Below, one piece after another: positions 11,016 to 24,277 of a stretch of 64,000 nt of DNA (position 1 is the stretch's first letter; every line of letters starts with the position of its first letter). Both the position numbers and the translations under genes were made by a program. The DNA comes from Pyrinomonadaceae bacterium (lineage in GTDB: Bacteria > Acidobacteriota > Blastocatellia > Pyrinomonadales > Pyrinomonadaceae): positions 3,097 to 67,096 of the forward strand of contig JBJXFZ010000072.1 of the NCBI GenBank assembly GCA_046154245.1. The letters are read 5' to 3'. The notes beneath the pieces are model-generated. The model was not told where the DNA came from and did no database searches. It worked only from the letters and a program-made list of their open reading frames with translations.

Positions 11016-11115
11016 TGGCGGAGGCGTGTGGGAGTCGAACCCACCCAAGAGACGCTCTCGCGCTCTCGCAAACGGTTTTGAAGACCGCGCCCATCACCGG
11101 ACAGGATGCGCCTCC
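11016..11115 (-). tRNA. selC: tRNA-Sec (anticodon UCA)
   Basis: Minus-strand sequence GGAGGCGCATCCTGTCCGGTGATGGGCGCGGTCTTCAAAACCGTTTGCGAGAGCGCGAGAGCGTCTCTTGGGTGGGTTCGACTCCCACACGCCTCCGCCA. It folds with a 7-bp acceptor stem, a 6-bp D stem (CCTGTC/GATGGG) with the 4-nt loop typical of tRNA-Sec, an anticodon loop CTTCAAA (TCA), a long variable arm, a T arm GTGGG-TTCGACT-CCCAC and an encoded CCA. Confidence 0.85.
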
Positions 11116-15846: not shown

Positions 15847-17304
15847 ATGACCGAAAGTACCGAATTAGAGGCCGAAGCGGCCGAAGCAGGAGGGCCGGCC
15901 GCGCCGCCAAAGCCGCATTACGACCGTTCGATCGTCGAGGGCCCTCTGGGGCGTGCCGTCTGGAAGATCGCCTGGCCGACAATGCTTACAAACGTAATCG
16001 CCGGTCTGCAGGGCATGATAGATCACGCCCTCGTCGGCAATCTCGTCGGTTACAAGGCAAACGCCGCCATCGGCATCAGCTTTCAGATATTTCTCACAGT
16101 CGTCGTTTTTATTTCATCCATCTTTATTGGAATGTCGATTCACGTCGCTCGCTTTGTCGGTGCGGGTGATAAGGCCAGGGTCGATCGAACGGTTTACCAG
16201 GCGTTTTTGACCGCGATCTTTATCTCGGTCGGCATTATGGCGCCGGTCGGTTATTTTGCCGCGCCGTACCTGCTTGATTTTGTCAGCCCGGACGCGGGCG
16301 TTAAGGCCGAGGCGTTGCCGTTCTTAAGAGTTACCTTTGTCTTCAGCTTTGGTATTTTGATCTATTTTATGACGAGCGGCGCGCTGCGTGCCGCGGGTGA
16401 CGCAAAAACCGGTATGCGGCTCGGCATTGCGATGACGGTGCTAAATCTGATTTTGAATATAGTGCTGATCAGCGGCCTCGGCCCGATCCCGGCATTTGGC
16501 ACGGTCGGCTCGGCGATGGGTTCGAGTATCGCGGCAGGAACCGTCGGGCTATACGCGATCTACAAACTCTGGAGCGGCGGCTGGGTCGTGCATTTTCCTC
16601 GTGGACAAGGTTGGGGCCCGGATTGGAAGCTGATCAGATCGCTCTTTAAGTTTGGCCTGCCCGCCGGCATTCAGGGAATCGCGATGAACATCGGCGGTCT
16701 TTTGATGCTCTACTTTATCGGCACGCTTGAGAACAGCGCCGCCGCGCAAGCCGCTTACGCGCTCGCGTACGGTCAACTGTTTTTGCTCGTAACGTGGTCG
16801 TCGAACGGCCTGATGGGCGCGTCAGCGGCCGTCGCGGGACAAAACCTCGGTGCCAAACAACCCGATCGCGCATTCTCAGCCGTAAACACCGCCGCGCGAT
16901 TCGGCCTTGCCGGAGCGACATTTCTCGGGATCTTTTACTTTTTCTTCCCCGCTCAGTTGTTAGCTGTATTTGGCATGACCGACCCCACGGCTGTCGACAT
17001 AGGTGTTCAACTGCTGCGCGTGCTCGCCTTCTCGGGACTGTTTATCGCGGTCGCTCTGACATACACCGGCGGTCTGCAAGGCACGGGCGACACAAAAAGC
17101 CCGCTGTATATCTCGATCATCTCGCAAGTCGTCGTGCCGCTCGGCATCTGCTTCGTCATAAAGCAAGTCAGCCACCTCGGACCCATCCACATATGGCTCG
17201 CGATCCTCGCCGGCCACATGACCCGCTGCGGTTTGAGTGTGTTTAGGTTTCTGCAGGGCAAATGGCGCTCTATCAAGGTCGAGATCGAAACGACGGCTGC
17301 CTAG
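15847..17304 (+). CDS. MATE family efflux transporter
   Basis: 485 aa with 12 predicted TM segments and a MATE-like N-terminus (AWPTMLTNVIAGLQGMIDHALVG). Confidence 0.85.
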   Translation: MTESTELEAEAAEAGGPAAPPKPHYDRSIVEGPLGRAVWKIAWPTMLTNVIAGLQGMIDHALVGNLVGYKANAAIGISFQIFLTVVVFISSIFIGMSIHVARFVGAGDKARVDRTVYQAFLTAIFISVGIMAPVGYFAAPYLLDFVSPDAGVKAEALPFLRVTFVFSFGILIYFMTSGALRAAGDAKTGMRLGIAMTVLNLILNIVLISGLGPIPAFGTVGSAMGSSIAAGTVGLYAIYKLWSGGWVVHFPRGQGWGPDWKLIRSLFKFGLPAGIQGIAMNIGGLLMLYFIGTLENSAAAQAAYALAYGQLFLLVTWSSNGLMGASAAVAGQNLGAKQPDRAFSAVNTAARFGLAGATFLGIFYFFFPAQLLAVFGMTDPTAVDIGVQLLRVLAFSGLFIAVALTYTGGLQGTGDTKSPLYISIISQVVVPLGICFVIKQVSHLGPIHIWLAILAGHMTRCGLSVFRFLQGKWRSIKVEIETTAA

Positions 17305-20371: not shown

Positions 20372-20596
20372 ATGAGCCACACCATTCCTGCAATTTTTGA
20401 AAATGGCGTGTTTCGCCCGCTTGAGAAAGTCGAGCTCAATAACGGCGAAGAGGTCGAGATGATCCTGCTCGACAAAACACAACATAATCCAAAAAGGTCG
20501 CGTGAGATTTTGAACGAGATCGCCAAACTTCCAATCGAGGGCGGCGAGAACGGATTTTCCGGCCGAGACCACGATCAAGTCCTTTATCCCAAATAA
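20372..20596 (+). CDS. type II antitoxin (DUF104/AF2212-like)
   Basis: 74 aa. The N-terminus MSHTIPAIFENGVFRPLEKVEL is family-typical. It lies 5 nt upstream of a PIN toxin gene. Confidence 0.75.
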   Translation: MSHTIPAIFENGVFRPLEKVELNNGEEVEMILLDKTQHNPKRSREILNEIAKLPIEGGENGFSGRDHDQVLYPK

Positions 20597-20601
20597 CTTC
20601 C

Positions 20602-20997
20602 ATGATCTTTGTTGACACGAGCGCATGGTTCGCTTCTATTGTCCCAACCGATCCCAACCACGACAAAGCCGCCGAGTGGCTGCAAAGTAATAACGAAGTC
20701 TTATTCACCACTGATTACATTGTTGACGAAACTTTGACGCTGCTACGGGCGAGAGGCGAAAACAGGCGGGCGATCTCGCTCGGCACGAACTTTTTCGACG
20801 GTCAGTTGGCGGTCGTTTATCGGCTATCCGAAAACGACATTGCGCGTGCGTGGGATGTTTTTCAGCAGTTTAGCGATAAGGAATGGAGTTTTACAGATTG
20901 CACAAGCAAGGCGGTTATGGAGAGTTCCGGCATTACCTCCGCCTTCGCATTCGACAAACATTTTACGCAGTTCGGCGTCGTCGTGGTTGTTCCTTAA
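20602..20997 (+). CDS. vapC: PIN-domain toxin VapC
   Basis: 131 aa. MIFVDTSAW...TTDYIVDET...SFTDCTS carries PIN acidic residues. Confidence 0.8.
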   Translation: MIFVDTSAWFASIVPTDPNHDKAAEWLQSNNEVLFTTDYIVDETLTLLRARGENRRAISLGTNFFDGQLAVVYRLSENDIARAWDVFQQFSDKEWSFTDCTSKAVMESSGITSAFAFDKHFTQFGVVVVVP

Positions 20998-21002
20998 CGG
21001 GT

Positions 21003-21093
21003 CCACATGGCCCGCTGCGGTCTGAGTGTTTTCAGATTTTTACAAGGTAAGTGGCGAGCGATCAAAGTCGAGATCGAAACGACCGTTGCATAG
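21003..21093 (+). pseudogene. orphan 3'-end fragment of a MATE transporter gene
   Basis: It encodes HMARCGLSVFRFLQGKWRAIKVEIETTVA*, against GHMTRCGLSVFRFLQGKWRSIKVEIETTAA* at the end of the intact MATE gene (17214..17304). I counted 17 of 91 nt differences by hand, mostly at third codon positions. Confidence 0.8.
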
Positions 21094-21546: not shown

Positions 21547-21885
21547 TTAACTTGCGGATGCCCTGTTAATCATTCCGTTATCCTGATCAATGCGAATCAT
21601 TGAGCTGCGTTTTAATGAACCATCACCGTCCACATTCGAAAACTCGCAATGGTACTTCGTAATTGGGCTACCATGTAACTCTTCGACTTCCTCGAATTCA
21701 GGATGTGTAAGGATTACCGCTTGAGCTGCTTTATAACGGCCTGGTCCCGCGAGTGCTTGGACAATCTTCTGTATCTTTCCTCCATCTCGAATGAGATTTT
21801 TCTTTATTTGATCACCAGACATTGACCATAGTGAATCTGGAACCTCGATTAGTCCTAGACGATGCCTTCTTACTTCCATTATCAA
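21547..21885 (-). CDS. hypothetical protein
   Basis: 112 aa. GGAGG SD 8 nt upstream of ATG 21885. It lies directly downstream of the displaced dnaN tail. No family was recognised. Confidence 0.55.
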   Translation of the reverse strand: MIMEVRRHRLGLIEVPDSLWSMSGDQIKKNLIRDGGKIQKIVQALAGPGRYKAAQAVILTHPEFEEVEELHGSPITKYHCEFSNVDGDGSLKRSSMIRIDQDNGMINRASAS

Positions 21886-21907: not shown

Positions 21908-21960
21908 TCATATCCTCAGCGGCATGACGATGTATTTGTAGTCGTAGATGCTCTCGCCGG
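21908..21960 (-). pseudogene. displaced copy of the last 17 codons plus stop of dnaN
   Basis: 53 bp identical to 23048..23100 (TCATATCCTCAGCGGCATGACGATGTATTTGTAGTCGTAGATGCTCTCGCCGG). The repeat starts exactly at the stop codon. Confidence 0.9.
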
Positions 21961-22953
21961 CTATGCATATTTCTTGGGGTTTATTCTTTTCATCGCTTTG
22001 TCCAATTCGTCTTCACTTTCTGCAAGCCGCTTCGCTTCAGCGGTTCGGAATTTTTCGTATTCTGCAAGCGCATGACTATCGGCGGCCTCTTTACTGATCT
22101 TTCCCGCGTTTGTCAGTATTTCGCGTTCATTTAGCGTCAAGAAGCCGTGCAGTTTTTCGATCCAGTCGGCCATGCGCATCGGTTTGCGTCTCATCGCCTG
22201 AAGTTCGGCGAATTCGAGATATTGGTTAACGATCAGGTTTAGCTGTTTCAATTCGTTTTCGTCAAGATAGTTTTTTCCAACCGTAACGTCTTCTTTTTTA
22301 AGTTTTGTTCCGGGGAAATTCGTCAGCCCCATAAGTGGCTTTGCTGCATCTGCCTTTAACTTAATGAGTTCAGCCGCCGTGTGCCCGTGAATCGCGTAAT
22401 GGAATTTGTTCTGAACGGTAGCGAAAAACTCGTGGCTCATGTTGGTTTTCGGGTCGTAGTCGATGCTTGTCGCAAAAATGTCACAGACCTTGCGATAAAA
22501 AACCTTTTCGCTGCTACGAATGTCGCGAATGCGATCAAGCAGTTCGTCAAAATAGCTGCTGCGAGCTTCTTTGAGGCGTTCATCGTCGAGAGTGAATCCT
22601 TTGATTATGTATTCGCGAAGCCGCTGCGTGGCCCACTGGCGGAAATGCGTGCCAACATGCGATTTTACGCGGTAACCTACTGAGATAATTACATCGAGGT
22701 TGTAATACTGTGTCTGGTATCTTTTGCCGTCCCGGGCAGTTGTCAAGTATTCCTTGACAACTGAATTTTCGACTAGCTCGCCTTCTTCAAAAATATTTCT
22801 GATGTGAAGACTTATGTTCTGCTTGGTTGTTTGAAAGAGGTCGGTCAATTGGCTTTGATTAAGCCAAACCGTTTCGTCCTCAACAACGACATCAACTTTG
22901 GTTATGCCGTCAGGGGCTTGATAAATAAGGATTTCCGAGCTATTTTCAGGCAT
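21961..22953 (-). CDS. rhuM: RhuM family virulence/DNA-binding protein
   Basis: Family-typical EILIYQAPDGITKVDVVVEDETVWLNQSQLTDLFQTTKQNISLHIRNIFEEGEL and YYNLDVIISVGYRVKSHVGTHFRQWATQRLREYIIKGF. The track start at 23019 is TTG; ATG 22953 (MPENSSEILIYQ) fits the family N-terminus. Confidence 0.8.
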   Translation of the reverse strand: MPENSSEILIYQAPDGITKVDVVVEDETVWLNQSQLTDLFQTTKQNISLHIRNIFEEGELVENSVVKEYLTTARDGKRYQTQYYNLDVIISVGYRVKSHVGTHFRQWATQRLREYIIKGFTLDDERLKEARSSYFDELLDRIRDIRSSEKVFYRKVCDIFATSIDYDPKTNMSHEFFATVQNKFHYAIHGHTAAELIKLKADAAKPLMGLTNFPGTKLKKEDVTVGKNYLDENELKQLNLIVNQYLEFAELQAMRRKPMRMADWIEKLHGFLTLNEREILTNAGKISKEAADSHALAEYEKFRTAEAKRLAESEDELDKAMKRINPKKYA

Positions 22954-22996
22954 ATCACTAACGTAGTCGGAGTGCCTCTCAATATGAGTCAAAACG

Positions 22997-23026
22997 GAAC
23001 ATATTGTTGACTTCAACAATATGTTC
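22997..23026. repeat. perfect 14-bp inverted repeat with 2-bp spacer (GAACATATTGTTGA-CT-TCAACAATATGTTC)
   Basis: Read directly from the sequence. It lies between the dnaN stop and rhuM. On the minus strand it is followed by CGTTTTG, so it could be a dnaN terminator or an operator. Confidence 0.7.
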
Positions 23027-23047
23027 GCTCAACCACCTTAACTAAGA

Positions 23048-24277
23048 TCATATCCTCAGCGGCATGACGATGTATTTGTAGTCGTAGATGCTCTCGCCGG
23101 CGATGGACATTTGGGTTTGGGCGTTGGGGTCCTTGAATTCGAAGGCAATGCGAACCGGTGCGGCGGATTCGCGTGCCGGTGCCGTTGCGGCGGCCGTCTT
23201 GTCCGTTTTTTTACCGTCGCCCACTCGCTCACTCGCTCCCTCGCTCGCTCCGTCGCTCACGGCCTCGGCGGCGATCATCTCGGCGGAACCGACATTTGTC
23301 AGAAATTCGAGCAGGTATTGCCAGTTAAAGCCTAGCTGCACTTCCTCGCCCTTGTAATCGGCCTGGACGACCTCGTTGCCCTCACCCTGCTCGCTCGACT
23401 GGGCCGAGATCTCGACCTCGCCCTCGCGAACTGTGAGCCGAATAGAGCGGTTTCGCTCGTCGGCGATCAGAGCCATGCGGCGAACCGCGTTTCGCATCTC
23501 GTCTAGGTCAAAGGTTGCAACACGATCGTTGTCCTTTGGCATGACCATCTCGTAATTTGGGAACTGCCCGGTTAGCTTTCGCGTGATCAGCAGCCGCCCC
23601 TCGGTCTCGAAATAGATGTGGTTAGTGTCCTCGCCAAACGCTACATCGCCGGCCCCGCGAGAGAGTTTGACGAGCTCCATCAACGCCTTTTTCGGGATCA
23701 GCGTGTCCATCACGGCATCCTTGTCATCGATCGCACGCTCGACATACGCGAGGCGGTGGCCGTCGGTCGTGACCATTTTTGCAGTGCCGTCGCCGACGAT
23801 GAATTTGGCTCCCGAGAGTGTAAATCGCGACTGTTCGTTTGTGATCGCAAACACTGTGTTGCGGATAAAAAAGCCGAATATCTCGGCCGAGAGCTTCATC
23901 GGCGTCGACTTGAACTGCGGAATCTCGGGAAACTGGTCGCGGCTGACGCCGGCGAGGCGGTAATTTGCGCGGCCCGCCTTCATCGTCACCCAGTCGTTAT
24001 CCTCTTTTTTGAAATGCACGTCGCCCGGAGCGAGCACGCGAGCGATGTCAAACAGCTTTCGCGCCTGTACGCACATCGACCCCGGCGAGATGATCTCGGC
24101 CTCGGCGTCGCAGCGGATCGTGCAATCGAGATCTGTGCCGACGATGCGGATCTCGTTTTCGCCAATCGACTCGATCAGTATGTTTGAAAGCACCGGTATC
24201 GTCGTCTTTCGCTCAACGACGCCCTGAATAAAGCCCAATTCCTCTTTGAGAATGCTCTGATTAATTTTGAATTCCAT
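23048..24277 (-). CDS. dnaN: DNA polymerase III beta sliding clamp
   Basis: 409 aa. The N-terminus is MEFKINQSILKEELGFIQGVVERKTTIPVLSNILIE and the C-terminus is YIVMPLRI. It lies downstream of dnaA. Confidence 0.95.
   Translation of the reverse strand: MEFKINQSILKEELGFIQGVVERKTTIPVLSNILIESIGENEIRIVGTDLDCTIRCDAEAEIISPGSMCVQARKLFDIARVLAPGDVHFKKEDNDWVTMKAGRANYRLAGVSRDQFPEIPQFKSTPMKLSAEIFGFFIRNTVFAITNEQSRFTLSGAKFIVGDGTAKMVTTDGHRLAYVERAIDDKDAVMDTLIPKKALMELVKLSRGAGDVAFGEDTNHIYFETEGRLLITRKLTGQFPNYEMVMPKDNDRVATFDLDEMRNAVRRMALIADERNRSIRLTVREGEVEISAQSSEQGEGNEVVQADYKGEEVQLGFNWQYLLEFLTNVGSAEMIAAEAVSDGASEGASERVGDGKKTDKTAAATAPARESAAPVRIAFEFKDPNAQTQMSIAGESIYDYKYIVMPLRI

Follow-up and report, generated by a model that had tools for sequence, protein, structure and literature searches.

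In a Campbell-type event, a single crossover leaves direct repeats on both sides of the insert; when the homology is a shared gene end, the gene stays intact, and recombination between the repeats excises the insert. In Neisseria, minimal mobile elements are alternative cassettes that lie between a fixed pair of conserved genes and are exchanged by transformation; to our knowledge, they depend on homology to each of the two genes at their sides and have not been described with duplicated gene ends. Long direct repeats around restriction-modification (R-M) genes were reportedly described in a study from 2000, which Furuta et al. cited in 2010. Furuta, Abe and Kobayashi (2010, PMC2853133) described insertion with long target duplication for R-M genes, a process with no established mechanism, and proposed that the R-M enzymes cause double-strand breaks. 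Further systems for comparison are the displacement arrays of T6SS effector/immunity, Rhs and CDI genes (PMC5361080) and homology-facilitated illegitimate recombination (HFIR; PMC3240628); the term minimal mobile elements occurs in PMC3082526. A search of the literature on dnaN-end integration hotspots and on RhuM function or mobility returned nothing specific.

We analyzed a stretch of 64,000 nt, referred to as the window (its own locus is coded WIN and related loci carry L numbers). Its dnaN gene, encoding the beta clamp of DNA polymerase III, lies on the minus strand at 23048 to 24277. As the original prediction held, this essential gene was spared: it is intact, with 409 aa and the N-terminal, central, and C-terminal DNA_pol3_beta domains of Pfam. 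DnaN ends in GESIYDYKYIVMPLRI before the stop codon and is 92% identical in amino acids to that of L001, a Pyrinomonadaceae MAG and the closest relative at species level. The end of dnaN is part of an exact direct repeat (21908 to 21961 = 23048 to 23101), which had been reported as perfect but is 54 nt long and not 53 bp; the 54-nt sequence gave 2 matches in the window at ≤3 mismatches versus 0 in 100 shuffles. The left copy, tail A (23048 to 23101, minus strand), is the functional end and consists, as claimed, of the last 17 codons and the TGA of dnaN, with weaker similarity reaching 23112. The other copy, tail B (21908 to 21972, minus strand), is a displaced, nonfunctional dnaN tail that matches exactly over 21908 to 21961 and at 8 of 11 positions over 21962 to 21972. 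Overall, the two tails share 94% identity across 68 nt.

Between the tails lie a 94-nt leader holding a palindrome (22954 to 23047, minus strand, from the dnaN stop to the rhuM ATG) and a single gene, rhuM (21961 to 22953, minus strand), which bears out the content first assigned to the insert. The rhuM stop was said to abut the displaced copy; it does sit at the repeat edge, and the TAG (21963 to 21961) overlaps the repeat by 1 nt. Positions 21962 to 21972 of tail B supply the last rhuM codons and this stop, tail B being read in a frame different from that of rhuM, and the stop itself arises from a C-to-A change, the first mismatch beside the perfect block. The junction between rhuM and tail B falls at the microhomology AAATG, common to the usual rhuM end AAGAAATGA (L081, L083, and L169) and to dnaN CAAATGTCC. 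The ORFs up to about 10 kb away on either side of the insert gave no match to integrase, transposase, or resolvase domains, in agreement with the original prediction. Rfam and tRNA scans gave no match in the cassette region, the sole match being a tRNA-Sec at 11016 to 11115, and a promoter scan of the region gave nothing above chance.

The cargo gene is a clear RhuM family member. Its 330-aa product matched PF13310 at 368.8 bits (E = 1.6e-110), against a cut-off of 33.7, over 248 of 252 profile positions, and the PADLOC model PDC-S05 at E = 5.8e-142. Translation was assigned to the ATG at 22953, where homology to other rhuM genes begins and from which the database carries the 330-aa product; a TTG start at 23019, inside the palindrome, was ruled out since rhuM homology starts only at 22953. 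RhuM is a phage-defense candidate (PDC-S05) or candidate toxin with an N-terminal DNA-binding-like domain; its role as a toxin is a proposal only (PMC3710099). Nothing suggests that RhuM itself is the recombinase. No PDB structure was related to RhuM by sequence, and an AlphaFold2 model based on 39 homologues was poor (mean pLDDT, 52.5). Look-ups of exact products (the long dnaN, rhuM, and ORF112 ORFs and the 330-aa RhuM) found no other contig that carries them. GC and GC3 were 0.572 and 0.732 for dnaN and 0.455 and 0.514 for rhuM; with a window baseline GC3 of 0.631 ± 0.036 (27 large ORFs), the rhuM insert is compositionally foreign, and the earlier impression by eye that it is AT-richer than dnaN was confirmed by calculation. 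The nearest RhuM homologues (77 to 87% amino acid identity) all sit directly after dnaN, and the identities of RhuM and DnaN are incongruent among hosts.

The palindrome of the leader (22997 to 23026, minus strand) is a perfect inverted repeat of 14+2+14 nt, GAACATATTGTTGA AG TCAACAATATGTTC, followed by CGTTTTGA. It gave a terminator-like match on the minus strand and an RNA fold z of −3.2. Across 16 loci, 87.5% of the cells were paired and 8 of 14 pairs had changed on both sides, with a covariation of 0.38 versus 0.20 in shuffles (0/500) and ≤0.12 when slid. Moreover, the hairpin follows dnaN without any cargo in L007, L012, and L015. These features suggest that the 30-bp palindrome is a family-wide, covarying, terminator-like dnaN hairpin and not a cassette-specific site. 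Three other roles were rejected: a rhuM operator, as only 2 of 71 distant rhuM leaders among the matches listed have a stem of at least 10 bp; an integron attC, as the hairpin lies 5′ of the cargo, also occurs without cargo, and is accompanied by no IntI; and a sigma-70 −35 box in the TTGACT/TTGATA after the hairpin, as the L027 start codon follows only about 14 nt on. By BLASTN, the window and L027 are homologous from dnaN across the stop codon to window position 22989, and the leader is about 85% identical (judged by eye, with no identity computed for the leader alone) to that of the L027 cassette, in which the cargo is a DinD-like gene.

Tail B is followed, as predicted, by a GGAGG motif and a small ORF, ORF112 (21547 to 21885, minus strand; 112 codons, or 110 aa from the ATG at 21879). 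This orphan-like gene had been taken for the original downstream neighbor of dnaN. Its GC3 is 0.36, more foreign than that of rhuM; it has no Pfam or PADLOC match and no homologue in 80 related loci (tblastn, E ≤ 1e-5), and a word-indexed search of 5.8 billion proteins returned ORF112 alone. Exhaustive HMMER searching found relatives of 95 to 104 aa at 35 to 45% identity, as well as repeats in proteins of 1,100 to 2,900 aa. No third, degenerate dnaN tail was detected after ORF112 at an nhmmer E value of ≤10. ORF112 is thus a further foreign gene and not a native neighbor; in the ancestral arrangement, dnaN adjoins a convergent matE, and one subclade has UPF0182 between the two. The expected empty site, dnaN followed directly by the 112-aa gene, did not materialize: no related locus shares the ORF112 flank, and comparison of the sequences downstream of the spare tails of WIN, L027, L039, L002, and L067 with 80 loci found none.

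The convergent dnaN/matE gap is a hotspot in Pyrinomonadaceae (Acidobacteriota). Among the Pyrinomonadaceae loci, this slot (or dnaN/UPF0182) holds different genes in nearly every species, and matE lies 60 to 90 nt from the dnaN stop in L042, L020, L018, L035, and L046. In the window, matE itself (15847 to 17304, plus strand; Pfam MatE), convergent with dnaN in most relatives, also has a displaced tail: its functional 3′ end (17214 to 17304, plus strand) recurs at 21003 to 21093 (plus strand) as a 91-nt copy of the last 29 codons and TAG, 81% identical. The copy begins 6 nt past the stop of vapC, the second gene of a toxin-antitoxin pair formed by a vapB-like (AF2212-like) gene and vapC (PIN) at 20372 to 20997 (plus strand; PF01954 and PF01850), which is the cargo before it. 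Of the 17 differences between the matE copies, 12 are at third codon positions, and frame and stop codon are intact. The same vapC-matE tail junction is present in L001 and L002.

A profile of the dnaN tail was used to survey related loci. A second tail was found in 5 of 77 species-level loci (WIN, L027, L039, L002, and L067) and also on two metagenome contigs, L081 and L082, while 72 of the 77 loci have a single tail. The duplicated arrangement is not common to all relatives; its presence in all of them, with diverged repeats, was what the original prediction had named as pointing to an old fixed rearrangement. The search for other rhuM genes joined to dnaN tails was successful: L081 and L082 carry a decayed rhuM-tail junction. 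Besides RhuM, the cargo before spare tails includes a DinD/Bro-N protein (PADLOC PDC-S13, E = 9e-112), a predicted membrane protein of 169 aa without a Pfam match, and unknown ORFs. All of the repeats have their outer edge at the stop codon (+3 to +7), whereas the inner edge varies (−18, −62, −81, −82, and −113). The junction is at about −62 for RhuM in WIN and at −81/−82 for the DinD-like gene in L027 and L039, so that each cargo type appears to retain its own junction across clades; the rhuM junction edge in L081 and L082 is weaker, as only the last 45 nt of the tail were detected. The cassettes of L027, L002, and L081 have no recombinase gene beside them. Several lineages carry rhuM after dnaN without a spare tail (L051, L083, L084, L166/167, L168, and L169; the upstream end of L165 is cut off). 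Since most rhuM-after-dnaN lineages are of this kind, the arm is not required for residence.

Tail B of L027 encodes the ESI variant, which otherwise occurs in the WIN/L001/L002 clade only, and is 94% identical to the window tail; the L027 leader is also WIN-like. In L039, tail A has the derived variants of its nearest relatives L040, L041, and L044, and tail B lacks them. In L002, an ENT-type tail B resides in an ESI-type genome. Because the spare tails of L027, L039, and L002 are those of another lineage's dnaN allele, the spare tail appears to travel with the cassette. In the window, tails A and B are identical, and neither can be identified as foreign from the window.

We also examined distant rhuM loci, obtained from one metagenome scan with RhuM as the query (52 to 66% identity among the matches listed). 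Among these listed matches, 10 of 70 loci were bracketed by repeats of 31 to 136 nt compared to 3 of 2,000 controls (14% versus 0.15%; odds ratio, 111; P = 2.7e-13), a first hint that the RhuM family is enriched for such repeats. In the listed matches, the repeats are made of neighbor genes: a HicB-like tail, a TonB-dependent receptor tail, a cas1 head, and an hsdS head. Six repeat pairs held 64 differences, of which 44 (69%) were at third codon positions, with 42 synonymous versus 17 nonsynonymous codons and every frame intact. The excess at third positions was significant (P = 5.6e-5) against an in-situ-decay null of 44%, a figure that is our own rough estimate, and the signal came mainly from two pairs, L113 (22 of 27) and matE (12 of 17).

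Compared to the described systems, the rhuM cassette works like the long-target-duplication class, outside its original R-M definition. It is a compositionally foreign, defense-related unit of 1.09 kb with one gene, below the 20-kb bound of that class and with no mobility gene within about 10 kb; its direct repeats exceed 30 bp in both the exact block and the 68-nt alignment and match a target that is single-copy in 72 of the 77 loci, and, as in some of the known cases, overlap the 3′ end of a neighbor gene. Nonetheless, the cargo here is a lone RhuM, a DinD-like gene, or vapBC and not R plus M genes, R and M homologues being absent from the insert; the insertions target an essential replication gene at its end, a site reused family-wide; the spare copy often has the allele of another lineage, which points to a carried homology arm and not to a duplication arising at insertion; and double-strand breakage of the R-M type is not evident at the rhuM cassette. 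Campbell-type and cis-mobilizable att elements share the direct repeats on both sides and the intact gene, but the homology here is only 20 to 115 nt, there is no identifiable integrase or att core, and a circle is only proposed. Like displacement arrays, the locus has a conserved upstream anchor beside which new modules push older material downstream and leave gene fragments; in those arrays, however, the variable 3′ tip of the anchor is replaced, whereas the dnaN end is conserved and simply duplicated. The rhuM-tail joint at a 5-nt microhomology recalls HFIR. The dnaN-matE slot resembles minimal mobile elements in holding different cassettes per species between the same two conserved genes, without mobility genes; from the allele mismatches and the RhuM/DnaN incongruence, we infer that exchange at this slot proceeds by transformation and homologous recombination. 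Integron cassettes are likewise single, promoterless-looking genes with one hairpin palindrome each, inserted beside a fixed point, but here IntI and attI are absent, and the hairpin is 5′ of the cargo instead of a 3′ attC, lacks an R″/R′ consensus by eye, and is absent from other rhuM loci.

The structure is explained most economically by recombination within the dnaN tail. With somewhat better than even confidence, we read it as recombination of the RecA type through a gene-end fragment that came with the cassette, either as a Campbell-type insertion or by transformation; the recombination route, its RecA dependence, and excision are inferences. In this reading, a cassette with one gene and no recombinase, made up of leader, terminator hairpin, and rhuM, would have carried a short piece of the dnaN tail in physical linkage with its cargo and would have entered the last ~60 nt of dnaN by homologous recombination at this piece. 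A single crossover in the tail would yield an intact dnaN (tail A) followed by the cassette, with the spare tail B on the far side. The partner may have been a circle composed of tail, leader, and cargo, inserted in Campbell fashion as first proposed, or, with an equivalent product, a linear transforming fragment with tail B as its right-hand arm and overlapping arms; the early idea of recombination on tail homology thus fits, and the foreign-allele tails elsewhere agree with it, but the circle is only one of two routes. Foreign-allele spare tails with other cargo are indeed expected if cassette and tail recombine into a resident dnaN tail. The first rhuM-tail joint probably arose by illegitimate joining at AAATG. 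Tail B would then be a portable homology arm: recombination between A and B would excise the cassette and restore dnaN, and, since the end of dnaN is its best conserved part and borders a permissive convergent gap, any related genome could receive cargo plus tail. The last 100 nt make up 7.6% of dnaN, yet the longest identical run between species fell there in 29% of pairs, a share that rose to 47% among those with a longest run of at least 30 nt; synonymous-codon identity was 0.66 in the dnaN end versus 0.53 elsewhere (P = 4e-4). Recombination on 20 to 60 nt of homology is inefficient in the bacteria studied so far.

Judged by the window alone, a fresh in situ duplication or gene conversion fits equally well. 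A true long target duplication, made as the insert arrived, would involve two breaks some 54 to 62 nt apart in the dnaN tail and fill-in around an incoming rhuM fragment, after which the copies decay in place. Such duplication is documented for defense genes without mobility genes, with repeats of 30 to 420 bp that in some cases overlap 3′ gene ends (PMC2853133), and both the perfect copies of the window and the decayed copy in L081/L082 would suit it. It is nevertheless unlikely: in L027, L039, and L002, the spare copy is the allele of another lineage and not a decayed resident one, 69% of the inter-copy differences are at third codon positions with frames intact, and the same inner edge per cargo type in different clades suggests an inherited joint.

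Equally improbable in our estimate is an old, fixed rearrangement whose tails are kept identical by intrachromosomal gene conversion around a cassette that no longer moves. In its support, L081/L082 have this rhuM cassette with a leader of the same type, a junction that appears to be the same, and a decayed tail; in the window, the 11 nt beside rhuM contain 3 mismatches and the adjoining 54 nt contain none, as is typical of a mosaic in which divergence has halted conversion. Against this, the closest species, L001 and L002, hold other cargo at the site, which indicates fast turnover, and conversion leaves the foreign tails of L027 and L039 unexplained. With regard to origin, the old rearrangement is compatible with our preferred explanation and differs only on present activity. 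Given the decayed junction in L081/L082, the insertion need not be recent, and gene conversion or heteroduplex repair could explain the perfect 54 nt just as well.

More doubtful still is site-specific integration, in which a tyrosine or serine recombinase from another part of the genome would act on a nonautonomous, cis-mobilizable cassette with the dnaN 3′ end as att. In its favor, direct repeats where a conserved gene ends are classically the mark of an att site, the stop codon forms a constant outer edge, and our view of the genome spans 64 kb only. The label "att-like" in the original prediction is nonetheless misleading, as the inner edges range from −18 to −113 instead of marking a fixed core and the repeats derive from dnaN, matE, HicB-like, TonB-dependent receptor, cas1, and hsdS genes, 5′ heads as well as 3′ tails, with no common core; varied edges and unrelated source genes argue against a dedicated site-specific recombinase. 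In addition, no recombinase lies within ~10 kb here or beside the L027, L002, and L081 cassettes, a partial check of 80 loci saw no integrase-bearing element at dnaN, and L039 has a native functional tail, contrary to what an element bringing the new gene end would leave. Lastly, an assembly artifact, in which a separate circular or strain-variant tail-leader-rhuM molecule was threaded into an empty chromosomal site via the shared 54-mer, is very improbable: the perfect block is exactly 54 nt, that is, k − 1 for k = 55 and a shared de Bruijn graph vertex, but it ends at the base change that creates the rhuM stop, a biological boundary, degenerate similarity runs 11 nt further, and the independent assemblies L027, L039, L081, and L082 have the same architecture with imperfect repeats that are not collapsible.

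How single defense genes spread without a mobility gene of their own is poorly understood. The recombination reading presented here offers, in this locus and its relatives, a compact and testable model: a cassette of ~1 kb whose homing specificity apparently lies in a 50- to 110-nt copy of an essential gene's end. It is possible, though we put this forward tentatively, that small defense and toxin cassettes (RhuM, DinD-like, vapBC, and probably further ones) form a widespread recombinase-free mobile class, each with a neighbor gene's tail or head as its homing arm, that inserts, excises, and crosses species by host homologous recombination only; "long target duplication" would then be no target duplication, and in Pyrinomonadaceae such traffic would contribute to the uniformity of the unusually conserved dnaN 3′ end. 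In a bolder extension, the cargo proteins might themselves stimulate recombination, for example, by DNA damage. If true, the recombination reading would account for the sparing of the neighbor gene and for particular gene ends becoming hotspots, and a displaced gene end with another lineage's synonymous variants would serve as a signature of mobile defense cassettes and of their previous hosts.

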